Part shown: positions 1 to 62,495 of the stretch, piece by piece
How positions within the stretch are numbered: position 1 is the stretch's first letter
Layout: every line of letters begins with the position of its first letter
IMG/VR virus record: IMGVR_UViG_3300031111_000011
Span: 1-64,000 of that record
Direction: 5' to 3' (one strand)
DNA length: 64,000 bases
Origin: a virus
Program-made: the position numbers and the translations under genes
The notes under the pieces: model-generated
What the model was told of the DNA's origin: nothing
What the model saw: the letters and a program-made list of their open reading frames with translations, nothing else
The model's database searches: none

Positions 1-94
1 GCAGGAGGGATCTTTGATCCCGTATGCCAGAATGGTGAACGAAAGTACCCCCAAGGTACTTTCGAATCACCTATGAAACTAATATACTAATAAA

Positions 95-126
95 CCCAGT
101 TCTTCAGGAACTGGGTTATTTTTTTT
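95..126 (+). terminator. rho-independent terminator hairpin (cccagttc/gaactggg) with T-tract
   Basis: 8-bp perfect stem, 5-nt loop, followed by ttatttttttt. Confidence 0.6.
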
Positions 127-281
127 GAAAAAAATAATATTATATTTTCTATTAGAGAACCCCTTTAGGGGTTCTAATAAATAATATTTAGTATTAATAG
201 AGCCGCCGCTCTATAAGCGGCGTCTATAGAGCCAACCTACCCCGACCCCCTATTTCCGAGTGTGTGCAGATCTGAGAACCA

Positions 282-311
282 GTTGCAAAAATTCCGTGTG
301 AGGGTGTATAT
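282..311 (+). promoter_or_regulatory. sigma70-like promoter TTGCAA-N18-TATATA
   Basis: Near-consensus -35/-10; a TGAGAA half-site lies just upstream at 266-276. Confidence 0.4.
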
Positions 312-340
312 ATACGCCTGAGAACTCGCGGGAGAACTTC

Positions 341-364
341 GGGGCACCCCCTCCGGGGTGCCCC
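341..364. repeat. perfect 10-bp inverted repeat GGGGCACCCC-ctcc-GGGGTGCCCC
   Basis: Strong GC hairpin in the non-coding leader; no T-tract, so not a classic terminator. Confidence 0.6.
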
Positions 365-370
365 CCCCAG

Positions 371-400
371 TATCTGACAACATCTGACAGTATCTGACCA
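371..400 (+). repeat. three tandem 10-bp direct repeats (t/c)ATCTGAC(a/c), iteron-like
   Basis: tatctgacaa / catctgacag / tatctgacca are head-to-tail; shares an ATCTGA core with the palindrome family. Confidence 0.55.
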
Positions 401-858
401 TCCTCATCCTCTCCGCACAAGGTGACTGGGCACCACACTGAGCCACCACTCACCCTGGTCATCATCCTGTACCACTACGACCACACCACACACAACACAC
501 TGAATACATGGCACATACTCACCTCTCACCCTGCGGTATTGTGACCACATTGTGACCTATGGTCCATAGACATCTAAAGGATCGGGAGAAGTGGGTTGTC
601 CTGGTCCTGGTATGGTCCAGGCTAATCACTGCTAATCGTGCGCCCTGGTACGTGAAATCGTATTTCATTATGACATGGCATGTGATGACATTTCACAAAA
701 AGTGTCTCACTATGTGTCTCACTGAGACAACACACCACACTAAGCACCTGATATTACAAGACCCACCTAAGTCACCTACTGGTGACTAATTACCTTCCTG
801 CATTTTATTTCATCTTTTTTGAGAAAAAGAGCATTTGTGAGGAAATCGGAGCTTTTTG

Positions 859-874
859 TGCTCATATCTGAGAA
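859..874. promoter_or_regulatory. palindromic element TGCTCA-tatc-TGAGAA (family copy 1)
   Basis: Matches 16-bp consensus TTCTCA-N4-TGAGAA; lies upstream of the ORF-free 880-1510 stretch. Confidence 0.5.
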
Positions 875-1477
875 GACACACCAAAAACCGGTCCTAATCG
901 GGTCTTATCAGACTTGAGAAGTTGAGTGGGGTTGCGTATAACCAAGCCACGTTGTGAGGGAAACCACAACGGACACGGCGCAAGCCACGTCGCTCTTTTA
1001 CATAGAAGGCCACACGGGATGAGAGGCACAGGGGAAACGGTGCCAGCGAGTAAACCCCATCAATAACATCTCACCTCGTGGCGATGACAAAGATCGGCAG
1101 GGATTTCCCCTGGGGAACGGCTACCCGTCAAGGTCTACTTACTCAAGCCTCAACTTGAGACGCCCAAAATAGTGGCTACGTAGATAAACGGTTAGGGCCG
1201 AGAGCCCAAACGATAACAAAACACACTCAACACGACTCACCATAGCTTGCTTACGGAAAAGTAAGGGATGCGGATGGTGGCAAGTTACTTGCCTTAATAT
1301 CCATTGAAAGCGTCATCCATCGGAAAAGTACGGGCTTCCTGGTGAGTTGTCTCTCCTCTGCTCTCTCATTGGAACATAGAACGGCGTCCCTTTTCATCCC
1401 TTGACATGGTTTCGACTAGGTCATGCGGACAGGATATCACGCCTCGTCGGTCCTTTCGAGGGAGTTGAGGGGAAACC

Positions 1478-1510
1478 AAAGCCCACCATTTAGGTGGTGG
1501 GCTCTGTTTT
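1478..1510 (+). terminator. rho-independent terminator (agcccaccat/ggtggtgggct + tctgtttt)
   Basis: 10-bp stem and T-tract just upstream of the first CDS; would end a non-coding transcript from the 880-1510 region. Confidence 0.6.
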
Positions 1511-1541
1511 CCCTTCAACCTAAGCACAAGGAGCACAGACT

Positions 1542-3019: not shown

Positions 3020-3175
3020 ATGAAGACCTACCGCATCAAACACCGTAAAGGCAAGAACACGAATCACTGGGCCATCTGGGAAGTCAAGAAGGGAAACAAG
3101 ACGGGACCGCCCAGGATCGTGGCAACGGGACCGTACAGCGAGGTCTGGGCCAAGTTCCAGGAGATCATCGGCTGA
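3020..3175 (+). CDS. hypothetical small basic protein (51 aa)
   Basis: SD ccaggaggagagcaacATG. Confidence 0.45.
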   Translation: MKTYRIKHRKGKNTNHWAIWEVKKGNKTGPPRIVATGPYSEVWAKFQEIIG

Positions 3176-3255
3176 TTGCCTTACGTCCCCACATGAGCGC
3201 TCAAGCGCTTGTGTGGGGAGGCAAGCCAATCAACACACTAAAAGGGGAGGATTTC

Positions 3256-3429
3256 ATGACGTACTGGAATTGGATGTTGGACCTGATCTTTGATTTCGCA
3301 CCATTTAACCATGATCTGGCTGCTTTTGTCCGGGATCTGGGAATGTCCGCTCAGGTCATGCCATTGCACCGGGATCACCACGAACTGTTCGGGGAAATCG
3401 TGGACAGTTGGCACGGTGACAACCGATAG
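3256..3429 (+). CDS. hypothetical small protein (57 aa)
   Basis: SD aaaggggaggatttcATG inside listed ORF 3193-3429. Confidence 0.45.
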   Translation: MTYWNWMLDLIFDFAPFNHDLAAFVRDLGMSAQVMPLHRDHHELFGEIVDSWHGDNR

Positions 3430-6468: not shown

Positions 6469-6684
6469 ATGTTTTACATCAGGTTTCTTGAGCTATGGAA
6501 TCTGTCAACATCGGATTTTAGGATTTACGGGGCGACTTTTGCGACGGATGAAATCTGGTTTTTAATTGTGGAGAAAGGCCGTGGGCTCTCTCACTGGGGC
6601 CGATCTCTACAGGCCAGGATGAATCGTTACAACGGCGTTATCCACTCTGATGATCATCCCCTGAACAAACTCTATGGGAGGTAA
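6469..6684 (+). CDS. hypothetical protein (71 aa)
   Basis: SD aaggagaagacATG. Confidence 0.5.
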   Translation: MFYIRFLELWNLSTSDFRIYGATFATDEIWFLIVEKGRGLSHWGRSLQARMNRYNGVIHSDDHPLNKLYGR

Positions 6685-6686
6685 AC

Positions 6687-6974
6687 ATGAAAGAGCATCG
6701 ATTCACCATCGAAAGTGCGGCCCAGGTCAGAGCCAAGGTCAAGGCGTTTCAGGAACTGACCGATGCCAAGAAGGTTGAGGTTCGGGTTCGAGGCCCGTTC
6801 CAATTCGACAAGTCCAAGGATCAGCCCATCTTCATTTCCGCACCGGATGGGGATCTGGTCACCGTCTCGGATAAGGCGGGGACCGCTATCCACCGAGCCT
6901 CCAAGCAGGACATCAAACTGGGGGCCAATCCCGACCTGGATTTTCCCCAGGTCTGTATTCTGCGGGTCAGATAA
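6687..6974 (+). CDS. hypothetical protein (95 aa)
   Basis: SD atgggaggtaaacATG. Confidence 0.5.
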   Translation: MKEHRFTIESAAQVRAKVKAFQELTDAKKVEVRVRGPFQFDKSKDQPIFISAPDGDLVTVSDKAGTAIHRASKQDIKLGANPDLDFPQVCILRVR

Positions 6975-7041
6975 GCTCATTTCGTGGCGGGTCCGGTCCA
7001 CTGTGACCGGATCTGTCACACACACTCGATAAGGAGGATCG

Positions 7042-7176
7042 ATGCAAATAATCTATGTACACGACCAGAAAATTGTCATCAACGACAAAACGCCCAAACG
7101 ACGTGTCCGAAAACGTGTCAAACGACTGGAACCTTACCGACGAAAGGGCAAATACAAGGATCTTTTTGTTGATTAG
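7042..7176 (+). CDS. hypothetical basic mini-protein (44 aa)
   Basis: SD taaggaggatcgATG. Confidence 0.35.
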   Translation: MQIIYVHDQKIVINDKTPKRRVRKRVKRLEPYRRKGKYKDLFVD

Positions 7177-7179
7177 GGG

Positions 7180-7208
7180 TTGACCTACCGCCTGTAATTT
7201 ATATCATA
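7180..7208 (+). promoter_or_regulatory. sigma70-like promoter TTGACC-N16/17-TATCAT upstream of LuxR-family gene
   Basis: -35/-10 spacing; about 40 nt upstream of the ATG at 7249. Confidence 0.4.
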
Positions 7209-7248
7209 TTTCCAGTGAGTTGAACTCTCAACGGAAAGGGTCCAGGTC

Positions 7249-8028
7249 ATGGAAAAACTCAGAGAGGCAATGTCCAAGGTGCTACGAGACGTAGGCGAAG
7301 GGTACGAACTGTTCTTGCTGGTTACTTACCACAGTCAGACCACTGGGGTCACCATCTTGGACAAGGATCTGACCATCCTCTGGTACAACCCATATGTCCA
7401 AAAATACTTTGGCCTTGAGTTCATTAACACTAATTACCTTGACAGGTTTCCTGGGGAGCAGAGAGAGGCCACGAAGAGTCAACTGCGGCAAGCAGAAAGG
7501 ACCGGGGTCAGTGATCCTGCGCTCCTTCAGCCCCCAGGTGTTGAGATGGTTGTCGAAAGGCGCATCTGGGCAGTCTCAGGCGGGTACATCGCCGCATCCT
7601 ACGACCACACCGTACTCACTCAAGCAGAACAACGCACCAAGGATGTACAGACCACACTGACCCTCTTAGCTGAGGCGCGGGAGGGGCTGATACGGGATGC
7701 CCAACTCAAGACACTGGATATGATGGAAACTCACTGCAAGGCAATCTGCGGCAAATATGGGAACCGAAGCCCGTATGAGTGCAAGTCGAGAAAGAAAGTG
7801 CTGGCTGAGATCCTGGCAGGTAGGCCCAGGCTCCAGACCACACTCACTGACACTGAACTGGAGGTGGCTCGGCTCTACCAAGCGGGTCATCGGAGAAAGG
7901 AGGTTGCCGAGATCCTCGATGTGTCTGAGCATACGGTAAAAAATCATAGTACCTCCATCAGAAAAAAGCTTGGCATGAACAACCCAAGTGTGTCCCTTAT
8001 TGAGTATCTTCAACGGTTTACCTTATAG
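7249..8028 (+). CDS. LuxR/FixJ-family transcriptional regulator with N-terminal PAS-like sensor domain (259 aa)
   Basis: C-terminal HTH TDTELEVARLYQAGHRRKEVAEILDVSEHTVKNHSTSIRKKLGM matches the LuxR-type HTH signature; the N-terminal ~120 aa have PAS-like composition. Confidence 0.7.
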   Translation: MEKLREAMSKVLRDVGEGYELFLLVTYHSQTTGVTILDKDLTILWYNPYVQKYFGLEFINTNYLDRFPGEQREATKSQLRQAERTGVSDPALLQPPGVEMVVERRIWAVSGGYIAASYDHTVLTQAEQRTKDVQTTLTLLAEAREGLIRDAQLKTLDMMETHCKAICGKYGNRSPYECKSRKKVLAEILAGRPRLQTTLTDTELEVARLYQAGHRRKEVAEILDVSEHTVKNHSTSIRKKLGMNNPSVSLIEYLQRFTL

Positions 8029-8177
8029 GACCGGATTAGGACCAGAATGGGACTTAACAAAATATTCTGGCATTGTTAAGTATTTCCTAATCAGGTCGGA
8101 ACCCAGTGATTTAGAACCTTTGGAAGACGGAAGGAGGCAGACGCTCACTTAGGTCGATCTCCCATAAATGGTACACC

Positions 8178-8207
8178 TTGACATACGGAGATGTGAGAAG
8201 GTACAGT
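8178..8207 (+). promoter_or_regulatory. sigma70-like promoter TTGACA-N17-(G)TACAGT
   Basis: Consensus -35; the spacer contains the half-site aTGTGAGAAg of the palindrome family. Confidence 0.4.
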
Positions 8208-8268
8208 ACGTTGCTCTGCAACTAATAGCCAGAGAGCTACTACGCACTCACCAGAAAGGGAGTCAAGA

Positions 8269-8628
8269 ATGGAGATCCAAAAGAAAAAGGCCATCAAGAA
8301 TGTTCTCACTGCTTGCAAGCTCATCCGCAAGGAATTCGGTGACCTCCCCTACCCCCAGTTAATTTGTCTGCTGGAGGTCATGGTCGAGGAAGGGATTACA
8401 AAAAACCAAATCGGGGCAAATAACGATCCGACGATGCCAGTAAGCTCTATCAACAGATATGTTGCGAGGCTCACAGACGAGCACGAGCGCAGAAACGCAG
8501 CAGGAAAGCGGGTTCCCGGTCCCCTGACAGTGGATCGAGATCCTGACCTTCCCCAACGTCACCTCGTGAGTCTGACGTCTTTTGGCAAGTTGTTTCGGGA
8601 AGCCCTGGTCAATGAAATGGAGGCTTAA
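8269..8628 (+). CDS. putative winged-helix DNA-binding protein (119 aa)
   Basis: SD aaagggagtcaagaATG; helix-rich small protein downstream of a promoter and nested inverted repeats. Confidence 0.45.
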   Translation: MEIQKKKAIKNVLTACKLIRKEFGDLPYPQLICLLEVMVEEGITKNQIGANNDPTMPVSSINRYVARLTDEHERRNAAGKRVPGPLTVDRDPDLPQRHLVSLTSFGKLFREALVNEMEA

Positions 8629-8849
8629 TGACCAGCCAGGAAATCACTTTTCAGTTCGATGATAACACCCTTAGTGTTGAGGTGGCAGAGGACGGGATCA
8701 ACACTGAGGGTGCGCTATTCCGCTTGAATAAGATCTCTCTGGATGATCAAGAGGAATTGGGTAAGCTCAGGCGACACATAAATGATGCGCTCACCCGATA
8801 CCAAATGCTGCTCGAAAAATATCCAGAGGCAAAGGATGGAGAGATGTAA
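8628..8849 (+). CDS. hypothetical acidic protein (73 aa)
   Basis: TAATG overlap coupling. Confidence 0.5.
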   Translation: MTSQEITFQFDDNTLSVEVAEDGINTEGALFRLNKISLDDQEELGKLRRHINDALTRYQMLLEKYPEAKDGEM

Positions 8850-8865
8850 CAAAAGTGGTTTCGTG

Positions 8866-8898
8866 TGAGGAGGGGTTGGCACCTCTCCTCTTTTTTTC
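8866..8898 (+). terminator. rho-independent terminator (gaggagg...cctctcctc + T7)
   Basis: Stem followed by ttttttt; immediately precedes palindrome copy 2. Confidence 0.6.
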
Positions 8899-8906
8899 TC
8901 TTTAAC

Positions 8907-8922
8907 TTCTCATATCTAAGAA
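8907..8922. promoter_or_regulatory. palindromic element TTCTCA-tatc-TAAGAA (family copy 2)
   Basis: Between the terminator and the SD/ATG of 8937. Confidence 0.5.
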
Positions 8923-8936
8923 GGAGGAAAGCGACT

Positions 8937-9134
8937 ATGTCTATTTGTGATCGGTGTGCGACCGGGTGTTGGACAGCCCCGAGTGTCCGTTGTCAGGCTT
9001 GCAATGCAGGTAGTCTGTTCATTCCCAATGGGGAACCCCACAAGGTGATGCCCCCGGTGCTTCACAAGGAAACCGAGACGTTTGGGTGGATTCTCCGCAA
9101 ACAGCTTCGGGAGAGATGCTACGATGCAACTTGA
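8937..9134 (+). CDS. Cys-rich small protein (65 aa)
   Basis: SD aaggaggaaagcgactATG; CDRC...C..C...C motif. Confidence 0.5.
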   Translation: MSICDRCATGCWTAPSVRCQACNAGSLFIPNGEPHKVMPPVLHKETETFGWILRKQLRERCYDAT

Positions 9135-9942
9135 CGAGCGGTACTTCGACGTTGATGCACCCCAGGACGTGACGCTTCGGTATCTTCACGAAGGGTGCAG
9201 CGACGGCAAAGATACCTGTCTGGTAGTAACTAAGACCAACAGCGGGTGGGCGTACTATTGCCATCGGTGCAAACTCAAGGGGTTCAAGCCGGTACATGGT
9301 TTGCCGCCATCGAAAGTGGCAGCGCTCTTTCGAGCGCAACAGCGAAAGCAATCCACTCTGGTACGCCAAGTTCAGCTACCCAAAGACTTCACCACGGAGA
9401 TCCCTCCAGAGGGTCTGGTGTGGCTCTACCGTGTAGGGATCACTGATTATGAGATCTCCTTCTTTGGTATTGGGTGGAGCAAGTCCTACGGCAGAGTGAT
9501 CCTGCCGGTGTACCAAGGACGAAAGCTGATTTACTGGCAAGGCAGGTATGTAGGCAAAGACGAGAGCATGGAGAAGTACGTCAACCAGAAACAAGTGGGT
9601 CGTGAGGACACCTACTTTCGGAACGAACCTCGTGTCACCTCTGGTCGAATCGTCATGGTCGAGGACATCCTGTCTGCTATCAAGGTGGGACGGGTGAGCA
9701 ACTGTATCGGACTCCTCTACGCCTACGTCCCCGATGCCCTCGTGGTCAAGCTACGTGAACGATATGATGAAATCGTGATCTGGCTGGACCCTGACAAGAG
9801 CCTCTACACACTGCGCGTCCTGAAGCGTCTCAGAGCGTTTGGGCTACCAGTCCGGAGAGTCTACTCACCGAAAGATCCAAAATATTACAACGAGGAAGAG
9901 ATCGAAAGTTTTCTGGAAGGAGGACTGAATGGGAGGACGTAA
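9124..9942 (+). CDS. DNA primase (T7 gp4-like zinc-binding domain + TOPRIM)
   Basis: CxxC-x15-CxxC zinc ribbon (CSDGKDTC...CHRC) then TOPRIM-like VMVEDILSAIKVG...; SD gggagagatgctacgATG. Confidence 0.7.
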   Translation: MQLDERYFDVDAPQDVTLRYLHEGCSDGKDTCLVVTKTNSGWAYYCHRCKLKGFKPVHGLPPSKVAALFRAQQRKQSTLVRQVQLPKDFTTEIPPEGLVWLYRVGITDYEISFFGIGWSKSYGRVILPVYQGRKLIYWQGRYVGKDESMEKYVNQKQVGREDTYFRNEPRVTSGRIVMVEDILSAIKVGRVSNCIGLLYAYVPDALVVKLRERYDEIVIWLDPDKSLYTLRVLKRLRAFGLPVRRVYSPKDPKYYNEEEIESFLEGGLNGRT

Positions 9943-10465: not shown

Positions 10466-10719
10466 GAATTCAACTCACTCCAGAGGAGATCGACGGACTG
10501 AAGACGTGGTTGGCGTACCCAAAGAAGGTCCGCAGAGGGGAATGTCCGTTTGTCTTTGTGCCGGGGAATACCTGTGCTCGTATCTGCCGCATGGTTTTTC
10601 CGGGTGATGAACTCGGCCTGTGCCCCTGTGACCAAGAGGGCGCAGACCATAAAAAAATCTATGAAGTTGCACGAGAAGGTGCGGAAAGGGGGTACATCAC
10701 AATTGGACTCGGACATTAA
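10462..10719 (+). CDS. hypothetical Cys-containing protein (85 aa)
   Basis: ATGA overlap; internal Met of listed ORF 10375-10719. Confidence 0.45.
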   Translation: MRIQLTPEEIDGLKTWLAYPKKVRRGECPFVFVPGNTCARICRMVFPGDELGLCPCDQEGADHKKIYEVAREGAERGYITIGLGH

Positions 10720-11713
10720 TGGCACGGTGATTTTTCTGACACCGTTTGGATCGCATCTCTACGGTACATCCACTCCGGAGTCGGATCTGGACTACAAGGG
10801 GGTGTATCTGCCGACAAAGGAGCAGATCCTGATCGGGAAGATCCCCAAGACTATCACTCGAAACACCAAGGTCGGAGAGGGGAAGAACAGCAAGGAAGAC
10901 ATTGACTTTCAACTTTATTCTCTCCCCTACTTTGTGGACCTTCTGGTCCAGGGTGAAACGTCGGCTATCGACATGATCCATGTCCGAAAGGATCAAGCTC
11001 TCGTGTGGACGGATGAGTGGGAACGGCTGCACCGCAACCGTCACATGAGCTACAGCAGAAATATGAAGGCGTTCGTCGGGTATGCCCGTAAACAAGCGGC
11101 CAAGTACGGGGTCAAAGGCAGTCGCCTTGCAGCCATGCAAGACGTCCTTGAATACCTGATGGCCTATATCCAGAAGGAGATTCTGTATGATTATGAACGT
11201 GATACCAAACTTCGAGACGTATGGGATGATCTTCCTGATGGTGATCATATTCATCGTCTTGATCCGACTGATCGAACTCCTTATCGCATGTATCAGGTCT
11301 GTGGGAAGAAGTTTATGGAGACAGTCAAGATTCGAGAAGTCTACGCTTCGATCAAGAAGTCCTATGATCAATACGGTCACCGGGCAGAACTGGCGAAGAA
11401 GAATCAGGGCATCGACTGGAAGGCAGTATCCCACGCACTCCGTGCGGCTTACCAACTGGTGGAAATCTTTGGGTCCGGGGATCTGGCCTTTCCACTCGCT
11501 GATGCGGCTTATCTGCGGAAAGTGAAGGAAGGCTCACTGGACTGGACCTCCTGGGTTCAACCCCACCTGGAGGAAATGATGGGCCGGGTGGAGTGTATGG
11601 CCTCTCTCTCCAAATTCCCAGAACAAGTGGACCGGACCTTCTGGAACAATCTGACTATCGACATCATGGAAACGTGGTTACTTACTCAAACTGTAGGAGG
11701 TGAATTATGCTGA
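10661..11713 (+). CDS. nucleotidyltransferase (Pol-beta/minimal NTase fold) of unknown specificity (~350 aa)
   Basis: TPFGSHLYGTSTPESDLDYKG fits hG[GS]-x9-13-D-x-[DE]; a third acidic motif EDIDFQLY lies ~45 aa downstream; start uncertain (ATG 10661 overlaps upstream gene). Confidence 0.55.
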   Translation: MKLHEKVRKGGTSQLDSDINGTVIFLTPFGSHLYGTSTPESDLDYKGVYLPTKEQILIGKIPKTITRNTKVGEGKNSKEDIDFQLYSLPYFVDLLVQGETSAIDMIHVRKDQALVWTDEWERLHRNRHMSYSRNMKAFVGYARKQAAKYGVKGSRLAAMQDVLEYLMAYIQKEILYDYERDTKLRDVWDDLPDGDHIHRLDPTDRTPYRMYQVCGKKFMETVKIREVYASIKKSYDQYGHRAELAKKNQGIDWKAVSHALRAAYQLVEIFGSGDLAFPLADAAYLRKVKEGSLDWTSWVQPHLEEMMGRVECMASLSKFPEQVDRTFWNNLTIDIMETWLLTQTVGGELC

Positions 11714-12794: not shown

Positions 12795-12824
12795 TTGACA
12801 ACTTACCAGATGTGATTATATTAT
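12795..12824 (+). promoter_or_regulatory. sigma70-like promoter TTGACA-N17/18-TATTAT overlapped by inverted repeat CCAGAT...ATCTGG
   Basis: Consensus -35; AT-rich -10 flanked by a 6-bp inverted repeat (operator-like). Confidence 0.45.
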
Positions 12825-12854
12825 ATCTGGTTTCGGGAAATAGTAATTAACTAA

Positions 12855-12881
12855 CAGACCCTTGAGGGTCTGTGTTTTTTT
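12855..12881 (+). terminator. rho-independent terminator (cagaccc ttga gggtctg + T7)
   Basis: Perfect 7-bp stem plus tgtttttttt; lies ~35 nt downstream of the promoter. Confidence 0.65.
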
Positions 12882-12890
12882 ACCTTCAAC

Positions 12891-12906
12891 TTATCAAATC
12901 TGAGAA
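12891..12906. promoter_or_regulatory. palindromic element TTATCA-aatc-TGAGAA (family copy 3)
   Basis: Between the terminator and SD aaggagg of 12918. Confidence 0.5.
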
Positions 12907-12917
12907 CAAGGAGGATT

Positions 12918-14434: not shown

Positions 14435-14449
14435 TTTTTTACCATTTAC

Positions 14450-14465
14450 TTCTCACATTTGAGCA
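14450..14465. promoter_or_regulatory. palindromic element TTCTCA-catt-TGAGCA (family copy 4)
   Basis: Immediately upstream of SD taaggagag. Confidence 0.45.
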
Positions 14466-14478
14466 TAAGGAGAGTCAG

Positions 14479-18165: not shown

Positions 18166-18181
18166 TTTTTTTCACTTGTCA

Positions 18182-18197
18182 TTCTCAAATCTGAGAA
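18182..18197. promoter_or_regulatory. perfect palindromic element TTCTCA-aatc-TGAGAA (family copy 5)
   Basis: 13 nt upstream of SD aaaggagg of 18210. Confidence 0.55.
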
Positions 18198-18209
18198 GAA
18201 AGGAGGTGT

Positions 18210-26393: not shown

Positions 26394-26422
26394 GGAAGGG
26401 GCATATATTTTTTGCCCCTTCC
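26394..26422 (+). terminator. terminator-like hairpin GGAAGGGGCA-tatattttt-TGCCCCTTCC
   Basis: Perfect 10-bp stem with T-rich loop, immediately followed by palindrome copy 6. Confidence 0.5.
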
Positions 26423-26438
26423 TTCTCAATATTGAAAA
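26423..26438. promoter_or_regulatory. palindromic element TTCTCA-atat-TGAAAA (family copy 6)
   Basis: Directly upstream of SD aaaaggagg of rtcB. Confidence 0.45.
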
Positions 26439-26446
26439 GGAGGACT

Positions 26447-27661
26447 ATGGAAAAGGTCATGTTTTCATCAGGCAGAATCCCTGCCTACTCATGGTTACCA
26501 GTGGACAAACTGGAGGAAGGCGCTCTGGAACAGATCCAGGCTTGCACTGCCCACCCCAAGGCTTACCACCACATGGCTGTGATGCCCGACTGTCACCAGG
26601 GATATGGGATGCCCATTGGCGGTGTGGTTGCCCTGGACGGCGCAATCAGCCCCAACATGGTGGGGGTGGACATCGGCTGTGGGATGAGTGTGGTCCGCAC
26701 CAACGCCAAATTCGTTCACACTTATCAAATCAAGGAAATCCTGAACCGACTCAAGACCATGGTTCCTGTCGGTGAGGGGAAGTTTCGATCTGACCCCGTC
26801 TCCTGGCCCAAGTGGGTGGAGTATCTGGACAAGGTCAAGGAGCGTCCTGACTGGATGAAGGGCTCTAACTGGCATCGGTTCAAGTGCAGCATGGGAACTC
26901 TGGGAGGTGGGAACCACTTTCTGGAGCTTCAGCGGGATGAAGAGGGTTACCTCTACATGATGCTCCACTCCGGTTCCCGTGGCCTGGGGTACGCCATTGC
27001 CAAGTACTACAACGAACTGGCCCAGACCTACTGCGTCAACCTAGACATCCCCAACAAAGATCTGGCTTACCTGCCGACCGATCACAAGTGGGGGCAAGCC
27101 TACATCCGGGACATGAACTTCGCCCTGGCTTTTGCCAAGGAAAACCGCAGGGTCATGATGGATGCCTTCAAATTCGCTTTCTTCCACGTTCTTGGATCTC
27201 CTGTCCGGGAGGACATTGATGTTGTCGATGAGATCGACATCCACCACAACTACGCGGCATTGGAGCACCACTTCGGCAAGGATCTGTGGGTTCACCGGAA
27301 AGGCGCGACTTCGGCCCAGTCTGGACAACTGGGGATCATTCCCGGTTCCATGGGAACCCACTCCTACGTCGTCGCTGGTAAGGGGAACCCGGACTCCTTC
27401 AAGTCCTGCTCCCACGGTGCTGGTCGAGTGAAGGGTCGGATGGCCGCTACTCGTGAACTCGACCGGATGGAGCAGGAGAGGAAGATGGACGGCATTGTCT
27501 TTGACGGGTTCAAAACCCTGAAGAAGGGTAAGCTGAAAGGTGCGTATGACCTGGGCGAAGCCCCTGATGCCTACAAAAATATTGATACTGTCATGTGGCA
27601 CCAGGGGGATCTGGTGGACGTGGTAGTAAAACTCAAACCGATAGGAGTCTTGAAAGGGTGA
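26447..27661 (+). CDS. rtcB: RNA-splicing ligase RtcB (3'-phosphate/5'-OH RNA ligase, 404 aa)
   Basis: RtcB signatures HMAVMPDCHQGYG, GGNHFLELQ, MLHSGSRGLG, CSHGAGR; ATG 4 nt after SD. Confidence 0.9.
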   Translation: MEKVMFSSGRIPAYSWLPVDKLEEGALEQIQACTAHPKAYHHMAVMPDCHQGYGMPIGGVVALDGAISPNMVGVDIGCGMSVVRTNAKFVHTYQIKEILNRLKTMVPVGEGKFRSDPVSWPKWVEYLDKVKERPDWMKGSNWHRFKCSMGTLGGGNHFLELQRDEEGYLYMMLHSGSRGLGYAIAKYYNELAQTYCVNLDIPNKDLAYLPTDHKWGQAYIRDMNFALAFAKENRRVMMDAFKFAFFHVLGSPVREDIDVVDEIDIHHNYAALEHHFGKDLWVHRKGATSAQSGQLGIIPGSMGTHSYVVAGKGNPDSFKSCSHGAGRVKGRMAATRELDRMEQERKMDGIVFDGFKTLKKGKLKGAYDLGEAPDAYKNIDTVMWHQGDLVDVVVKLKPIGVLKG

Positions 27662-28053
27662 TCCTTGACCACGAAAAGCTCTACGAGCATTCCGTAGAGT
27701 ATTGGGCGAAGCATAGACCTGACCCTCATCCGAGGGTCTTCTATGTGATGCTCGATGTTGCGAATCTTCTTGTAAAAGCAGGAGTAACAAACTGCCTCTA
27801 CGATAGATACAAACATCGAAGATTGGGGATGCACGTACCATACAAGTATGTGCTCACTCTTTCCGAGCCGGAAATTGAATCTGCGTTTAAGAAGAGGTTC
27901 TGTCATCTCAAGAAGGAGGATTCCGGCACGGAAACCTTCTACGCAACCAAGGAGCTACGGGACTGGATCGAGTGGGTTCAAGGTCTTCAAAATGCCAATC
28001 TTCTTCCGTTTGAAATCAGACACCGTATCTGGGAATCCCTCGAAGTGAAATGA
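27658..28053 (+). CDS. hypothetical protein (131 aa, GTG start)
   Basis: GTGA overlap with rtcB stop; SD taggag 10 nt upstream. Confidence 0.45.
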   Translation: MILDHEKLYEHSVEYWAKHRPDPHPRVFYVMLDVANLLVKAGVTNCLYDRYKHRRLGMHVPYKYVLTLSEPEIESAFKKRFCHLKKEDSGTETFYATKELRDWIEWVQGLQNANLLPFEIRHRIWESLEVK

Positions 28054-28328
28054 AACCAATCGAAACCTTCCTGCTACGAGGAGATAAACTCGCTCGTAGA
28101 CGGTACGGTTTTGTGTTCGACCCGGAATCTTGTGAGTTGGTCTTGTCCTACTACTACGAGGAGGACCGGCCAACTCCAAGACATCGGTGGACAATCCACA
28201 AACAATGGTCAACGGAACTCAGCGATATTCTCGTTGGGGGCATCACTCTGGAGAAGATCAAAATACCAGAACCAGTAGTGAATGCTGTTCGTCTGAAATT
28301 CGCTAAACAGATAGGAGTGAGAAAATGA
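28050..28328 (+). CDS. hypothetical protein (92 aa)
   Basis: ATGA overlap. Confidence 0.5.
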   Translation: MKPIETFLLRGDKLARRRYGFVFDPESCELVLSYYYEEDRPTPRHRWTIHKQWSTELSDILVGGITLEKIKIPEPVVNAVRLKFAKQIGVRK

Positions 28329-28483
28329 AAGTCAAAATTTATTACGGGTACTTCAGTAGCGTGGAAATGAAGTTTAATGAAGTTTTTGGGGAGCGAAAGG
28401 ACATACGCATCTCTCATGTCCGGCAGACTCCTATTGGAGACACCCGCTACATTATGCTCAGTGTCTTCTATGAGGAGGTCTAA
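28325..28483 (+). CDS. hypothetical small protein (52 aa)
   Basis: ATGA overlap; ends 2 nt into the next gene. Confidence 0.4.
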   Translation: MKVKIYYGYFSSVEMKFNEVFGERKDIRISHVRQTPIGDTRYIMLSVFYEEV

Positions 28484-28638
28484 TGAACTTCTGCAAGAAG
28501 TGCAAGCATTACCAGAAGCTTCCCAGGCATGTGAGCAAGTGCCCCAGTGAGAAGGTGGGCTGGTGTCAGCTTCTGGTCCGGTATGTCGCAGCAGAGGATC
28601 GGTTCAACAAATGCTTCGAGAAACGTGAGGAAGCATGA
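28483..28638 (+). CDS. Cys-rich mini-protein (51 aa, zinc-ribbon-like)
   Basis: TAATG overlap; CKKC...C...C...C. Confidence 0.4.
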   Translation: MNFCKKCKHYQKLPRHVSKCPSEKVGWCQLLVRYVAAEDRFNKCFEKREEA

Positions 28639-28937
28639 AGCTGATCTGCTGTCCCTCTTGTTGGGACGTGTTCAAACTCGCCAAGGAAGAGCGCACCTGC
28701 TCATGCGGACGGTGCTCAGGCAGGTACCTCAACAACACCTACGCCGAGACAAATGGTGAGGGAATCAACCTCGCCATTGGCAACGGGTCACTCCTGCAAG
28801 CGGCTTACAACCTCGACCACTTTGCGAAGGACGCAGAGCGTCACGAGTTCATCGACCACAACCCCGTGATCTGTTGGGTCCGTCCTCCAGAAGGACCGGG
28901 AAACCCACACACCACTGTACGAAAGGAGGAATCATGA
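28635..28937 (+). CDS. Cys-rich protein (100 aa)
   Basis: ATGA overlap; CCPSC...CSCGRC cluster. Confidence 0.5.
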   Translation: MKLICCPSCWDVFKLAKEERTCSCGRCSGRYLNNTYAETNGEGINLAIGNGSLLQAAYNLDHFAKDAERHEFIDHNPVICWVRPPEGPGNPHTTVRKEES

Positions 28938-30322
28938 ACCCCATTCTGAATACTGACTCTTACAAAGCGAGTCATTACAGGCAGTACCCTGAAGATGTGG
29001 CCTGGGTGAGTTCCTATATCGAAGCACGGGGTGGAAAATACCCTGAGACGGTTTTCTTCGGGCTGCAAGCCTTCCTGAAGGAGTACCTAAGCAAACCCTT
29101 CACCCAGGCTCATATCAATGAGGCAGAGGACTTCTGGGAGGCTCACGGCCTCCCGTTCAATCGGGGAGGGTGGGAATACATCCTCGCCAGATACCGGGGC
29201 TATATGCCTATTTTGATCCAGGCGGTGGATGAGGGCTCGGTGGTTCCCACTGGCAATGTTCTTGTTCAGATTATTAACACTGACCCTGAAGTTCCCTGGA
29301 TCACCAGCTACGTGGAAACCGCTCTGCTCCGGGCAATCTGGTACCCCACCACGGTGGCTACCCTTTCCCACTTCTGCAAGCGAGATCTCTACAACTACTG
29401 GAAGGAGTCGAGTGACGCTCCTATTGAGTCCCTGGACTTCAAACTTCACGACTTCGGTGCTCGTGGGGTGAGTTCCCTGGAATCTGCTGGACTGGGTGGG
29501 ATGGCCCACCTCGTCAACTTCAAAGGCACCGATACGGTGGAAGGGGTTCTCGCTGCAAGACGGTACTACAACGAGCCCATGGCAGGATACTCAATCCCTG
29601 CTGCCGAGCACTCCACCATCTGCTCCTGGGGCGGTCCAGGACGAGAAATGGATGCCTTCCGAAACATGATCAGCCAGTTCGGTGGAGACTATCCACTGAT
29701 CGCTGTGGTCAGCGATTCGTACAATATCTGGGACGCAGTGGATAACAAATGGCCTTACCTGGATACCGAGATCAGTGCCAGTGGGTCCACCATCGTGGTC
29801 CGTCCGGACAGTGGAGATCCCCACATCGTACCTGTCGAGGTGATCAGCCGTCTCATGCAGAAGTTCGGATTCACGGTCAATAGCAAGGGCTACCACGTCC
29901 TTCCGGATCGAATTCGAGTTATCCAAGGCGACGGGATTACCGGCGATAGCCTGAATCGCATCCTGTTCAACCTCCGGATGAAGCGTCTCAGCATCGACAA
30001 TATTGCCTTTGGTATGGGTGGTGGGCTGCTCCAGCAGATCAACCGGGATACCTGCAAGTTCGCCATGAAGTGCAGTGCGGTTGCTGGCAAGAGCAACCAA
30101 TGGCAACCGGTGTTCAAGCAACCTGTGGATCAGCCTGACAAGGTGAGCAAAAAGGGTCGGCTGAACCTGATCCGGAACTCGGATGGTGAGTTCGAGACGG
30201 TCCCGGAGAAGTGGGAAGAGTCGCGGGGGGTTATGCCCATCCGGAGCATTAACGGGCTCCGCTACCACACCACAACTTTCGAGGAAATCCGGGGACGGGT
30301 CCAGGAGCACCTCATTGCTTAG
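28934..30322 (+). CDS. nadV: nicotinamide phosphoribosyltransferase (NAMPT/NadV, 462 aa)
   Basis: MNPILNTDSYKASHYRQYPE N-terminus and overall length typical of NAMPT; SD aaaggaggaatcATG. Confidence 0.85.
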   Translation: MNPILNTDSYKASHYRQYPEDVAWVSSYIEARGGKYPETVFFGLQAFLKEYLSKPFTQAHINEAEDFWEAHGLPFNRGGWEYILARYRGYMPILIQAVDEGSVVPTGNVLVQIINTDPEVPWITSYVETALLRAIWYPTTVATLSHFCKRDLYNYWKESSDAPIESLDFKLHDFGARGVSSLESAGLGGMAHLVNFKGTDTVEGVLAARRYYNEPMAGYSIPAAEHSTICSWGGPGREMDAFRNMISQFGGDYPLIAVVSDSYNIWDAVDNKWPYLDTEISASGSTIVVRPDSGDPHIVPVEVISRLMQKFGFTVNSKGYHVLPDRIRVIQGDGITGDSLNRILFNLRMKRLSIDNIAFGMGGGLLQQINRDTCKFAMKCSAVAGKSNQWQPVFKQPVDQPDKVSKKGRLNLIRNSDGEFETVPEKWEESRGVMPIRSINGLRYHTTTFEEIRGRVQEHLIA

Positions 30323-30821
30323 AGTCGGAGTCTTTGTTGGCAGATGCCAACCTTTCCACAAGGGGCATGAGCAGATCATCCGTCAGATGCTCCATGAACG
30401 TGGAACAGAGCGGTGTGTCATTCTCTTGGGGAGCATCAATGCTCCCCTTTCCGCTAAGAACCCTTTCCCCTACCCCACTCGTTATCAGTGGGTGAAGAAC
30501 ACCTTCCAGTATGTCCATGTCTTGGGCATTCCGGACTTCCCCGACAATGATGACTACTGGCTCTTCCATATCATGCAAGTTCTCAAGCTCCCTTACGTGG
30601 AGAGTGTTGACCCTTATTTCTACGTAGGCAGTGAGAGAGACGGTCGGGTCTACCACGAGCGTGGATTCACAACCATGATCGTTCCGCGCAGTAAGCAGTA
30701 CAGTGGGACTGAGATCCGAAGACGGCTTGCAGCCGGTGAGGACTTCAGTGAATTGGTGAGCGACCCTGAGTACGCTCAGTCAGTGAAGAGTGTGTGGGAC
30801 ACTGTGAAACATGCAATTTGA
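30315..30821 (+). CDS. nicotinamide/nicotinate mononucleotide adenylyltransferase (NMNAT, NadM-like, 168 aa, TTG start)
   Basis: Nucleotidyltransferase (H/T)xGH motif VGVFVGRCQPFHKGH; size fits archaeal/phage-type NMNAT; only in-frame start preserving the motif is TTG 30315 overlapping the nadV stop. Confidence 0.7.
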   Translation: MLRVGVFVGRCQPFHKGHEQIIRQMLHERGTERCVILLGSINAPLSAKNPFPYPTRYQWVKNTFQYVHVLGIPDFPDNDDYWLFHIMQVLKLPYVESVDPYFYVGSERDGRVYHERGFTTMIVPRSKQYSGTEIRRRLAAGEDFSELVSDPEYAQSVKSVWDTVKHAI

Positions 30822-34648: not shown

Positions 34649-35940
34649 TAGCCCACCTTTCCGAAGAGGGGAATCACCTGGGCTGTCTTGGGTGCGTGGA
34701 CCCCGTCATCCTCCCAAGGATGGAACTGAGCAGCCCACTCATCGATGAGCCTCTTCCCCTCCTCCTTGAGGGTCTTCTCAAAGTGGATGTAGTCCTGGGT
34801 GATCAGTGCTCCCATCTGGATTGGGTCACCCTTCTTCTGGATCGTATGAGAGAGCATCACACTCACCAGACGTTCGTTCCCAGACACCTCATAGAGTTTG
34901 GTAGCCAGAGTGTGTCGGAACTTGTGGAAGGATTCACTCTCCTTCCTACTCTTGCCCTTCTGGACCCCAAACAACAGTTCCCTGGCCTGATTGATTGGTC
35001 GTCGAGAGTGCCATTTGAACCGGAACACCTTACCAGTGTATTTGGCCGATCCGTGTTTTTTGGACTGTACCAATTTAATAGCGTCCTTGACGATCTCAGG
35101 CATGTAGAACCATGCCCACTTCCCGTCATTCGGACCCTTTCGCAGGAACTTGAGGGTTCCTTCCTTCCAGTCGATCCGGTCCCACCACACTCCCACATCC
35201 TTCTTATGGTTCCCGTTCCCAGTGAGTTCATGGACTCGGAACCCCATGAAGAAGCCCAGGCAGACCTGGGCGTAAGCTTCGGCCCATCGGAGTCCATCCA
35301 CCCCCTCAGTTTGTCTGTACAGGAACCGTAGCAGCTTGGCTACTTCCTCATCCGTGAACGTCCGGACATCCTCCATCAATTCCTCCTCAGTAGGTTCGGT
35401 GCTGACAGGTTTGACCAGATCAGCCGGGTTAGCCCCGGCGTACAGACCCTCCCCAAGGGCAAACTTGTACAGGTTCCGGATCGTGCTGATGAAGGCGTTG
35501 ATCGTGGTCGGTGCGTAGTGCCCCTCCTTGACCAAAGCCCTCTGAAACACCCGGAGCTTGCCTGGGGTGATTGCCGCCAGGGGCTCATGTGCGAACCATT
35601 TCTTAAACCGCTGGTTGTACTTGGATTGGTAGTTCGGCACAGCCGATGCTCCCACCTTTTCCATGTGCTCCAGCCACAACTTGTACGCCCGACTGAAAGT
35701 GATCGCTTCGAGCTTGTCCGGGATGGCCTGTCCCAGTTTGAGCTTCTGAAGCATCTTATTCCGCTCCTCCTCAGCGATCTGAAGGGAGAATCCGTTGTCC
35801 TCCCTGCCCACCTGGAACCGCTTGTTCTTACCATCCACCTTCACCATGAAGCTGAAGGTCTTGCCATCCCTGCCGTGGTAGGTGTAACAGCCCCGGTGCC
35901 GCTTGCTTGCTACGTGTGTCCCGATTTTCCCCTTTGCCAT
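34648..35940 (-). CDS. int: tyrosine-type site-specific integrase (431 aa from SD-supported start)
   Basis: C-terminal catalytic motifs R...HKFRHTLAT...LSHT...Y; start set at MAKGK with SD aaaggaggtagaATG (listed ORF extends 23 codons further upstream without an SD). Confidence 0.85.
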   Translation of the reverse strand: MAKGKIGTHVASKRHRGCYTYHGRDGKTFSFMVKVDGKNKRFQVGREDNGFSLQIAEEERNKMLQKLKLGQAIPDKLEAITFSRAYKLWLEHMEKVGASAVPNYQSKYNQRFKKWFAHEPLAAITPGKLRVFQRALVKEGHYAPTTINAFISTIRNLYKFALGEGLYAGANPADLVKPVSTEPTEEELMEDVRTFTDEEVAKLLRFLYRQTEGVDGLRWAEAYAQVCLGFFMGFRVHELTGNGNHKKDVGVWWDRIDWKEGTLKFLRKGPNDGKWAWFYMPEIVKDAIKLVQSKKHGSAKYTGKVFRFKWHSRRPINQARELLFGVQKGKSRKESESFHKFRHTLATKLYEVSGNERLVSVMLSHTIQKKGDPIQMGALITQDYIHFEKTLKEEGKRLIDEWAAQFHPWEDDGVHAPKTAQVIPLFGKVG

Positions 35941-36107
35941 TCTACCTCCTTTCGTGGGGTAACAAACCCCGGTTTGATTGTGACTTTCTTGTGACTTTTG
36001 GCCCGTCATGACTTACTGCAATAATTCAATTTTTCAAGTCTGGGCAAATATAACAACTCCGCAAACCTTTGTCAATAGCGAACTTCTCGTGTGTTATCAG
36101 TACCTTC

Positions 36108-36123
36108 TGCTCACATCTGAGAA
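36108..36123. promoter_or_regulatory. palindromic element TGCTCA-catc-TGAGAA (family copy 7)
   Basis: In the int-structural intergenic region. Confidence 0.45.
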
Positions 36124-36173
36124 GCTCGATTCGTTACCCCTGCGTCCAGAACCACTCACTCTAATTTACTCAA

Positions 36174-36212: not shown

Positions 36213-36244
36213 CGTGTGTGTTTGTGACCTATAGGTGACTTTAG

Positions 36245-36260
36245 TTCTCAATATTGAGAA
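36245..36260. promoter_or_regulatory. perfect palindromic element TTCTCA-atat-TGAGAA (family copy 8)
   Basis: Abuts the stop codon of the last minus-strand gene. Confidence 0.5.
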
Positions 36261-36587
36261 TTAGGAACCACCCTCTGGTTGGGCAGGTTGGATAATGGCT
36301 GGTGGAGTGGATGGTAGGACAACTGGGGGCAGTTCCTTGACCATCGTGAATCCCATACCCACAAGTCCAGCAATGAAAGCGGCCAGTCCACCGAACAGTA
36401 CCTTCCGCTGATTACCCCGGAGTGTGTCTACCTCACCCCTGAGATCCTCAATGTGAGCCCGGTTGGTCGCGCACCGACTCCATCCACCGTTATTGGCTTT
36501 GGCATGAATCTCATCCACCTTGCTCTGGACAGACATAAGCCTTTCGTCAATGCGAACCAGGAGTTCGCCCATCTCAGCAGGATTCAT
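36261..36587 (-). CDS. membrane-anchored protein with coiled-coil N-terminus and C-terminal TM (108 aa); lysis/spanin-like candidate
   Basis: TM LFGGLAAFIAGLVGMGFTMV then Pro-rich tail; ATGA overlap with upstream gene. Confidence 0.5.
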   Translation of the reverse strand: MNPAEMGELLVRIDERLMSVQSKVDEIHAKANNGGWSRCATNRAHIEDLRGEVDTLRGNQRKVLFGGLAAFIAGLVGMGFTMVKELPPVVLPSTPPAIIQPAQPEGGS

Positions 36588-36997
36588 TACACCCCCTTCT
36601 TGAGCGCCATGAAGTCAGCGATCTTGCGGTAACCGAAAGCAGATCCTACGGCGATGCCGAGCATCCATTGGTACCACTGTGGGCAGGTAGCCAGGGCAGC
36701 AAACCCGACTGTGACCCACCCTGCTCCGGTTGGAAAGAAACAGAGGATGGCAGGAATCGAAAGGACAATGGTAAACCATTCATCCTTCCACCCGCTCTGG
36801 TTGATGGAGGTGTTCTCCCAGGCGATGTCCCCCTGCTGTTGGGTGAGCATCTTATTAATGGTAGCTTCGGTTTTCGCCTCAGTCACCTTGACCTTGGATT
36901 CAACCTCCACCTCTTTGATACGTTGCCGATGTCGGAACCAATCTGTGACGGGGGCCATCAGACCCCCGACCAGATCACCAAGGATCTTACCGACCAC
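36587..36997 (-). CDS. putative holin/membrane protein (136 aa, C-terminal TM helices)
   Basis: Hydrophobic segments FTIVLSIPAILCFF, WVTVGFAALATC, MLGIAVGSAFGY; last of the structural cluster. Confidence 0.5.
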   Translation of the reverse strand: MVGKILGDLVGGLMAPVTDWFRHRQRIKEVEVESKVKVTEAKTEATINKMLTQQQGDIAWENTSINQSGWKDEWFTIVLSIPAILCFFPTGAGWVTVGFAALATCPQWYQWMLGIAVGSAFGYRKIADFMALKKGV

Positions 36998-62151: not shown

Positions 62152-62157
62152 ATAAGC

Positions 62158-62232: not shown

Positions 62233-62243
62233 TGATTTGCAGA

Positions 62244-62318: not shown

Positions 62319-62329
62319 GTGAGGAGAGA

Positions 62330-62406: not shown

Positions 62407-62416
62407 ACAAAAAAGA

Positions 62417-62492: not shown

Positions 62493-62495
62493 ATG

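Follow-up and report, generated by a model that had tools for sequence, protein, structure and literature searches.

A candidate composite control region between a PAS-LuxR and a MarR-like regulator gene of an uncultured phage

Results and Discussion

The gap between the two regulator genes

This study concerns a 240-base gap (positions 8029 to 8268) in a window of 64,000 nucleotides, positions 1 to 64,000 of the virus record IMGVR_UViG_3300031111_000011 of IMG/VR, which represents most of a 67-kb phage genome. The gap separates the gene of a PAS-LuxR regulator from that of a short MarR-type winged-helix regulator, and a first-pass annotation had placed nested inverted repeats and a promoter with a palindrome half-site in it. 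The best-supported element, as judged from the sequence, is an independent and probably autoregulated promoter of the MarR-like operon. As a whole, the gap may be a composite control region in which this promoter and autoregulation through the half-site are combined with hairpin arms that are candidate LuxR sites and/or form an RNA stem-loop, a reading to which we give about even chances. The locus comprises the following features.

7171..7177, + strand: GATTAGG core, 2 nt upstream of the LuxR −35 box, overlapping the stop of a 44-amino-acid open reading frame (7042-7176)
7180..7207, + strand: predicted promoter of the LuxR gene, sigma-70-type TTGACC-N16-TATCAT (10/12 matches, intergenic, correct strand)
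7249..8028, + strand: PAS-LuxR (GerE-type helix-turn-helix) regulator gene, 259 amino acids (family profile matches)
8029..8097, + strand: nested inverted repeats, 69-nt imperfect hairpin (repeat scan and fold)
8154..8170, + strand: TCGATCTCCCATAAATG, 16/17 with one gap against the upstream region of a homologous gene in a related locus (L001)
8178..8207, + strand: predicted promoter of the MarR-like operon, sigma-70-type TTGACA-N18-TACAGT (promoter scans)
8191..8200, + strand: half-site ATGTGAGAAG of an 18-bp palindrome, within the promoter spacer (weight matrix)
8255..8262, + strand: Shine-Dalgarno sequence AAAGGGAG, separated by 6 nt from the start codon (ATG, 8269)
8269..8628, + strand: gene of the short MarR-type winged-helix regulator, 119 amino acids (phrog_9665 and profile matches)
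8628..8849, + strand: gene of 73 amino acids overlapping the MarR-like stop (ATGA), from the list of open reading frames; no family match
8867..8897, + strand: canonical intrinsic terminator, 10-bp GC-rich stem and T7 (terminator scan; z = −3.22)
8906..8923, no strand: operator palindrome in its complete form, CTTCTCATATCTAAGAAG; 8 nt separate it from the preceding T-run, and it overlaps the primase operon's Shine-Dalgarno sequence

Both flanking genes proved to encode regulators, as the first-pass annotation had read them. The upstream product contains a GerE/LuxR helix-turn-helix (HTH) that scores 46.4 bits against a curated cutoff of 23.5, and its matches among solved structures include GerE, RcsB and EL222. 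The PAS fold of its N-terminal part is marginal in the single sequence (21.2, below the cutoff of 22.6) but supported across the family, three of whose four members have an N-terminal PAS_4 match (best E 9e-6). These members are the phage protein and the three full-length relatives that an exhaustive search with its N-terminal 195 residues retrieved among 1.84 billion representatives; scans for the loci that encode these relatives gave only generic HTH matches in metagenomes and nothing in genomes. All four proteins keep H162, C163, C167 and C178, an invariant H-C-x3-C-x10-C motif (residues 162-178) in the helix linking sensor and HTH, which could be a metal or redox site. The AlphaFold single-sequence model of the protein had a pLDDT (predicted local distance difference test) below 50 over residues 1-197 and was too poor for a fold search.

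The product of the downstream gene matches phrog_9665 ‘transcriptional regulator’ (E 3.2e-7). Related phage loci (L001, L005, L007 and others) were found through their primase, at 45-53% identity, and the protein is 25% identical to a syntenic 119-amino-acid protein of L001 (E 1e-7), from which a chain of homology leads to PF12802 (MarR_2) proteins of L005 and L007. A profile built from these four sequences matches the MarR structures 3bpx/3bpv (E 1e-8) and also MepR, SlyA and HosA. The 73-amino-acid gene is presumably co-transcribed with the MarR-like gene, and the terminator at 8867-8897 closes the operon.

A predicted promoter of the MarR-like operon

The predicted promoter consists of a perfect −35 box (TTGACA, 8178-8183, 6/6) and a −10 hexamer, TACAGT (8202-8207, 4/6), that has A2 and T6. 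Boxes and coordinates agree with the first-pass annotation, whereas the spacer (8184-8201) measures 18 nt and not 17. The promoter ends 62 nt before the ATG at 8269, with a predicted transcription start near 8214 and a leader of about 55 nt that is unstructured (z = −0.04). Scanning the 64 kb for at least 10/12 matches returned seven sites, four of which are intergenic and on the strand of the downstream gene, namely those at 7180 (LuxR), 8178 (winged-helix), 12795 and 36075 on the minus strand (integrase). Furthermore, TTGACA with a −10-like hexamer at about 17 nt occurs 90-170 nt before the MarR-like gene in L001, L005 and L007, in sequences that are not alignable with one another. On these grounds the promoter at 8178-8207 is a credible prediction.

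The segment TCGATCTCCCATAAATG lies just upstream of the −35 box, the place of an UP-like element; its local alignment score was reached by 25 of 500 shuffles (p ~0.05) and is marginal. Two further words that the gap has in common with the upstream regions of L005, L007 and L006, AGGTCGGAA and ATATTCTGGyAT, were not significant. Four small open reading frames in the gap have no family match and no Shine-Dalgarno sequence, and a mini-frame of 10 codons within the hairpin (8047-8079) is likewise without support.

The promoter at 12795 belongs to a small element of its own (12795-12885): TTGACA-N16-TATATT carries an inverted repeat, ACCAGAT..ATCTGGT, over its −10 box, and a canonical terminator (12853-12881) follows about 30 nt past the predicted start, then an operator palindrome and the next gene. 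The element has the appearance of a regulated leader or of a small RNA about 55 nt long.

Putative operator palindromes and the half-site in the promoter spacer

The window contains nine copies of an 18-bp palindrome with the consensus CTTCTCAnATnTGAGAAG and a 7-N4-7 arrangement. Motif scanning, for which a strand does not apply, placed them as follows.

858-875: leading region
904-921: leading region
8906-8923: CTTCTCATATCTAAGAAG, before the primase operon
12890-12907
14449-14466
18181-18198
26422-26439
36107-36124
36244-36261

In five of the nine, the order is fixed: 6-7 consecutive T, a gap of exactly 8 nt, the palindrome, AGGAGG and a start codon. These five stand at the start of the primase, helicase, post-helicase, post-polymerase and RtcB units. 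Real terminator hairpins account for just two of the T-runs, so that the T-run appears to be part of the element itself. The word TGAGAAS is found 30 times in the window against 15.2 ± 4.4 expected. Deviations between the arms are independent and never compensatory, nor are the mismatches wobble-compatible, which argues for the site of a dimeric DNA-binding protein and led us to reject an RNA hairpin. The palindromes were also rejected as promoters, since no sigma-70, extended −10, sigma-E-like or MotA-like geometry fits and no gene for a phage RNA polymerase was detected. A role as upstream activator site is excluded because the centre lies only about 22-28 nt from the start codon. Their layout suggests that the palindromes are operators, possibly stoperator-like or coupled to termination.

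The first-pass annotation had described aTGTGAGAAg in the promoter spacer as a palindrome half-site, and this was confirmed. With a weight matrix built from the 18 half-sites of the nine palindromes, ATGTGAGAAG at 8191-8200 scored 14.04, higher than any other of the roughly 128,000 positions that lie outside the palindromes; the second-best, at 270, is also in non-coding DNA. An exact match is found in 1% of background 50-nt windows. The half-site ends 1 nt before the −10 hexamer, and the left half of the would-be operator, ATACGGA, matches at only 3/7 positions, so that a half-site and not a full operator is present. A repressor bound there would block RNA polymerase, which makes autoregulation a reasonable proposal.

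The leading region of the window (1-1541) is a non-coding stretch of 1.5 kb with many short repeats, and additional operator half-sites are located in it at 270-279, 319-325 and 833-843.

Palindromes and half-sites in related loci

The relatives retain the layout of T-run, 7-11 nt, palindrome and ribosome-binding site with palindromes that are lineage-specific. One type, CACTAC..GTAGT, occurs in L001 and L002 and another, ATGCACnnGTGCAT, in L005 and L007; the MarR-like proteins of the latter two are 63-66% identical and their palindromes similar. The individual sites (locus, position, sequence) are:

L001, 5668: CCACTACTGTAGTC
L001, 12572: CCACTACCGGAGTAGTT
L002, 6290: GCACTACTGTAGTAGTGC
L005, 5385: TGCATATGCACATGTGCA
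L005, 9971: TATATACACATGTGTATATA
L007, 3312: ATATGCACTTGTGCATAC

In L001, L005 and L007 the MarR-like gene lies a few genes upstream of the primase and there is no LuxR gene; in L001 it follows an unrelated gene of 116 amino acids across a gap of 195 nt. Because the palindrome layout occurs without the LuxR gene and the MarR-like gene is conserved, we infer that the MarR-like protein is the best candidate for the palindrome binder. The MarR promoters of the three relatives were compared with the half-site of their own palindromes:

L005: ATATGCGCA, 8/9 to its own half-site, empirical p 0.024
L007: best match with 2 mismatches, empirical p 0.20
L001: best match with 2 mismatches, empirical p 0.29

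Combined by our own Fisher calculation, the three give p ~0.04, and recurrence of the half-site in MarR promoters of relatives is suggestive only. The LuxR gene and its hairpin were absent from every relative locus examined, and the pairing of LuxR and MarR-like genes is therefore lineage-specific rather than a conserved module. Hence, of the conservation in related phages that the first-pass annotation had named as a check, TTGACA before the MarR-like genes and the palindrome layout recur, while the LuxR gene and the hairpin do not.

The nested inverted repeat after the LuxR stop codon

The repeat structure begins directly after the TAG stop of the LuxR gene (8026-8028) and ends at 8097. The outer repeat consists of 8029-8041 (GACCGGATTAGGA) and 8085-8097 (TCCTAATCAGGTC), 13 nt each, 12/13 complementary and 43 nt apart, and the inner one of 8052-8060 (ACTTAACAA) and 8073-8081 (TTGTTAAGT), 9/9 complementary and 12 nt apart. 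Thus the nested repeats that had been noticed earlier are real, but their limits are 8029-8097 and not 8033-8106. By our own arithmetic, about 2 outer-type repeats (13 nt, one mismatch, at most 60 nt apart) are expected per 64 kb, and a perfect 9-bp repeat nested within one of them about 0.004 times.

The hairpin has an asymmetric internal loop, an apical loop of 12 nt and no T-run; the sequence downstream of it is GGAACCCAGTGA. Folding of 8020-8110 as RNA gave −24 kcal/mol (z = −2.08; 5 of 200 dinucleotide shuffles equally good), and the GC-corrected z of −2.82 is in the top 0.8% of 25,570 windows of 75 nt from both strands. The hairpin is real and unusual, yet weaker than the strongest hairpins of the genome (1451-1525, 3161-3240 and 27691). 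A canonical intrinsic terminator was rejected for 8029-8097, as the stems are AT-rich, a T-run is missing and the terminator scan was silent; bona fide terminators of the phage have GC-rich stems and T6-8. No Rfam match was obtained within 6500-9500 at E up to 5, and no tRNA or tmRNA in the region of the gap. As candidate operator half-sites with 10 extra spacing bases, the inner arms (CTTAACA/TGTTAAG) were dismissed, the resemblance of 5/7 (p ~0.04) being too weak.

A 20-nt direct repeat (16/20) links 8041-8060, ACCAGAATGGGACTTAACAA, in the left side of the hairpin with 8250-8269, ACCAGAAAGGGAGTCAAGAA, where the MarR-like gene has its ribosome-binding site and start; the repeat is of marginal significance (~0.05). 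A very stable hairpin of 25 bp is present at 1464-1519, just before the first gene. Moreover, the intergenic elements at 2343-2424 and 3173-3258 are about 70% identical, with conserved flanks CTTACGTC ... GAGGCAAnCCnATCAAC and a central hairpin in which the stem sequences differ in a compensating manner (TCTCCGCA/TGCGGAGA against CCCCACA/TGTGGGG). The pair may represent an RNA element that is repeated in the early region.

The outer arms as a repeated DNA motif

The outer arms share a 13-mer, GACCnGATTAGGA, with a third position in the window. Such a motif is expected 0.36 times with at most one mismatch, and none of 100 shuffles reached three copies. The exact matches are:

8029..8041, + strand: copy 1, left outer arm
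8085..8097, − strand: copy 2, right outer arm
892..904, − strand: copy 3, in the leading 1.5-kb non-coding region

Copy 3 abuts the operator palindrome 904-921, which overlaps a possible promoter, TTGAGA-N17-TATAAC (914-942, found by inspection), and it lies outside any comparable hairpin (z = −0.40). The core of the 13-mer, GATTAGG, is found four times in the 64 kb, each time at a regulatory site; three copies are non-coding and the fourth, at 7171, straddles a stop codon. Such placement is unlikely by chance since non-coding DNA accounts for only some 11.5% of the window. When the two copies from which the motif was defined are left aside and the promoter-adjacent one is counted as non-coding, we calculate post hoc, by our own arithmetic, a chance of about 0.01 for the remaining two. 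Because the core brackets the lineage-specific LuxR gene, we infer that the LuxR-type protein is its likeliest binder. It is plausible that the hairpin arms are binding sites of this protein, and the link between the two is drawn solely from the distribution of the GATTAGG core.

Proposed model of the control region

We propose that the LuxR gene is a lineage-specific insertion with its own promoter at 7180-7207, the 69-nt repeat structure marking the end of the LuxR unit, and that the MarR-like gene and the 73-amino-acid gene would form a separate unit running from the promoter at 8178-8207 to the terminator at 8867-8897. The MarR-like protein, the most probable occupant of the palindrome sequence, would bind in the stretch from the −35 to the −10 box and lower its own production, an effect that would be weak because only half an operator is present. 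The outer arms GACCnGATTAGGA would be candidate LuxR-type binding sites, GATTAGG being found also beside the LuxR promoter and the operator of the leading region, and in the transcript the same arm sequence may fold into a 3′ stem-loop without a U-tract. An RNA reading and a DNA-site reading of the nested repeat both survive and are not mutually exclusive. Promoter activity, the identity of the binders, the direction of regulation and any role of the RNA are in this model deduced from sequence features.

The first-pass annotation had suggested auto- or cross-regulation of the two genes. The promoter and the half-site make autoregulation reasonable. The inverted repeat, however, is situated 81-149 nt upstream of the −35 box at 8178, beyond the distance of standard activation or repression. 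There is thus no indication that the repeat acts directly on the winged-helix gene, and such action on the MarR-like promoter is the weaker form of cross-regulation.

Several findings weigh against the composite control region. The repeat is too distant from the promoter for classical control, and the promoter itself has a −10 hexamer of only 4/6 and an 18-nt spacer. When all 18 positions are compared, 8183-8200 shows 4 mismatches, a match at the level of chance (about 2.4 expected by our own arithmetic), and the half-site test in relatives is weak, with p = 0.20 for L007 and p = 0.29 for L001. The total of GATTAGG (4) does not exceed expectation (5.9), so that only the placement is unusual, and this was noticed post hoc; moreover, the 7171 copy has just the 7-nt core in common with the arms. 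The MarR-like protein is short and as a single sequence matches no Pfam model. In addition, the phage has no close relative against which conservation or covariation of the spacer could be assessed, as the closest primase shares 53% identity and the other assembly of this phage shows no difference over 6.36 kb.

Alternative explanations

The first alternative is that the nested repeat acts only as RNA, namely as the 3′ stem-loop of the LuxR transcript, while the promoter is constitutive and the half-site coincidental. The stem-loop could then be a weak terminator without a U-tract, a processing site of the RNase III type or a 3′ stabiliser. Its position directly after the stop codon, the two concentric repeats with about 22 stacked base pairs and an asymmetric internal loop, and its rank in the top 0.8% for structure fit this view. 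Moreover, a hairpin requires nested repeats and two protein sites do not, and other hairpins without a T-run follow genes in this phage (2343-2424, 3173-3258 and 27691). On the other hand, there are no G-U pairs or covariation pointing to selection on the RNA, with no alignable homologue to reveal them, and genuine terminators of the phage have GC-rich stems with T6-8. The 13-mer recurs outside a comparable hairpin at 892-904 (z = −0.40) and its core recurs by a −35 box, and the half-site that would have to be coincidental is the top-scoring site outside the palindromes. We regard this explanation as somewhat unlikely.

Direct cross-regulation, in which a PAS-LuxR protein that senses a ligand would attach to the inverted repeat and thereby turn the MarR-like operon on or off, is in our view distinctly unlikely. 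It would account for the architecture of a PAS domain followed by a LuxR-type HTH, for the location of the LuxR gene immediately upstream of the target operon and for a repeat with GATTAGG cores between the two genes, and it would suit a temperate phage with an integrase. Measured from the predicted start, however, the arm centres lie about 123 and 179 nt upstream, and inspection of the sequence revealed no alternative promoter at a distance compatible with an activator. Furthermore, in the relatives, which have no LuxR gene, the MarR-like operon has a TTGACA promoter, and no VqmA structure was found among the sequence matches at E up to 1.

A further possibility is that the repeats and the half-site are without function, being scars or recombination boundaries left by insertion of the LuxR module upstream of an existing MarR-like operon. 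This is consistent with the absence of the LuxR gene from all relatives examined and with the likeness of the window and L001 only downstream of the hairpin; in addition, all statistical arguments are post hoc and the shuffle z of the fold is only −2.08. It nevertheless requires an improbable coincidence of nested concentric repeats with a third exact 13-mer, leaves all four GATTAGG cores at regulatory sites to chance and does not explain that the top-ranked half-site falls within one of four strong promoters, and we consider it very unlikely.

That the AT-rich repeat is some other DNA-level site, a replication origin or an integrase/attachment site, is barely credible: it lies about 1 kb upstream of the primase-helicase-polymerase module in DNA of 39-43% GC against about 52% for the window, but there is no skew change, iteron array or other compositional signal of an origin at the gap, the integrase with its non-coding flank is located at 34.6-36.3 kb, and relatives with the same replication module lack the structure.

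Comparison with known systems

The composite control region resembles several known arrangements in part. Proteins of the MarR family bind as dimers to palindromes that overlap the −35 and −10 boxes of their own gene. As in such autoregulated promoters, the winged-helix gene has its own predicted sigma-70 promoter with an operator-like sequence between the two boxes. In contrast to them, only a half-site is present here and the full palindromes are elsewhere, right before the ribosome-binding sites of other operons; in addition, the protein is short (119 amino acids) and matches MarR through its family profile alone.

Phage morons are cassettes of promoter, gene and terminator inserted between conserved genes. 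The LuxR gene is similar in having its own sigma-70-type promoter, a stem-loop after its stop and no counterpart in relatives. It differs in that the stem-loop has AT-rich stems and no U-tract, and the GC content of the gene is unremarkable relative to its surroundings and thus not distinct. Early transcripts of the T7 type carry hairpins processed by RNase III, and these share with the present one an intergenic position, a length of about two helical turns, an asymmetric internal loop and a place in the early/middle region of a podovirus; there is, however, no sequence relation or conservation, and the arms here also behave as a repeated DNA motif.

VqmA-Phage of phage VP882 is a phage-encoded receptor that acts on the adjacent qtip promoter. 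Like it and EL222-type LOV-HTH proteins, the LuxR-type protein has a probable PAS-fold sensor followed by a GerE/LuxR HTH, and EL222 is among its HTH matches; its gene is likewise phage-borne and adjoins another regulator. Unlike VqmA-Phage, the protein has the invariant H-C-x3-C-x10-C motif in its linker and belongs to a family of only 4 representatives in 1.84 billion, and a VqmA match did not appear at E up to 1.

Among the Cluster A mycobacteriophages, a site of the repressor upstream of its own gene has been proposed to be autoregulatory, and many more sites are spread over the genome (PMC6550527; PMC9283540). These stoperators, as known from L5 and Bxb1, are asymmetric, bound by monomers and mostly in one orientation (PMC9283540, PMC6550527). 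The present phage is comparable in its many genome-wide copies of a motif in short intergenic gaps at operon heads, in the variation of the motif among related phages, in a site upstream of the regulator and in being temperate. In contrast, its sites are palindromic and follow a T-run at a constant 8 nt, and its candidate regulator belongs to an unrelated family.

The spacer is a new instance of an ordinary phage control region, combining a promoter with part of an operator and with a hairpin behind a gene. What makes it valuable is that it ties a candidate autoregulatory site to lineage-specific palindromes throughout the genome, with a rare PAS-Cys-LuxR sensor as a possible signal input. A bolder version, which we hold to be rather unlikely, makes the spacer the hub of a two-regulator switch in an undescribed lineage of temperate podoviruses, composed of a MarR-like palindrome repressor and the PAS-Cys-LuxR sensor. 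The repressor would act genome-wide on the 18-bp palindrome, 8 nt past the T-run on the ribosome-binding sites of the replication operons, and would limit itself through 8191-8200; its sites would be a palindromic, possibly termination-coupled counterpart of the mycobacteriophage stoperators. The LuxR protein, acquired by this phage alone, would bind GATTAGG in the promoter region and downstream of its own gene and also next to the operator of the early region, and would couple a redox, metal or small-molecule signal to the lysis-lysogeny decision. Should the palindromes block elongation or enhance termination, stoperator-like silencing would extend beyond actinobacteriophages, to a different protein family and a symmetric site. 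The more interesting lead lies outside the gap, in the fixed elements of T-run, N8, palindrome and ribosome-binding site across this phage group.

The phage and other features of its genome

A second assembly of the same phage (67,073 bp) has another start point and is identical across 6.36 kb, and since it begins at a different point the genome is probably circularly permuted. This identical assembly is the sole other copy of the region. The phage collection search gave no DNA match to any deposited phage, IMG/VR searches gave no relatives, and both regulators are singletons within a set of 5.8 billion proteins; with tblastn, the winged-helix protein had no match and the LuxR protein had matches at the HTH level only. 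The polymerase is about 30-35% identical to those of HMO-2011, ICP2 and Methylophilales podoviruses. The phage group is uncultured and has no characterised member.

Early and replication genes occupy the plus strand between 1.5 and 34.6 kb, among them those for DUF932, primase, DnaB-like helicase, family-A DNA polymerase, ribonucleotide reductase, RtcB, NAD-salvage enzymes and ligase. The minus strand carries the integrase (34651-36009) and virion genes (portal, terminase, internal virion protein and a 2,234-amino-acid protein). The phage is considered temperate because it encodes the integrase, and since no RNA polymerase gene was detected among the genes of the window it presumably uses the polymerase of the host. 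The genome is best explained as that of a temperate, podovirus-like phage reliant on the sigma-70 RNA polymerase of its host.

The tyrosine integrase gene on the minus strand has its own predicted promoter, TTGACA-N17-TATATT (36075-36047), and is adjoined by a non-coding stretch of 250 nt with two operator palindromes, which is likely the attachment and immunity region. Auxiliary genes at 26447-30821 encode the RtcB RNA ligase, a nicotinamide phosphoribosyltransferase and an NMN-adenylyltransferase-like protein, and a gene for a nucleotidyltransferase of the RlaP type is located at 10709-11710. The 2,234-amino-acid protein of the virion module (36987-43694, minus strand) has an LPD38 domain and a DUF7178 match, and its C-terminal third matches PHROGs of unknown function. 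Finally, 12 tRNA genes (Gln, Asn, Lys, Ile, Val, two Arg, Thr, two Gly, Ala and Asp) are clustered on the minus strand at 62077-63735.

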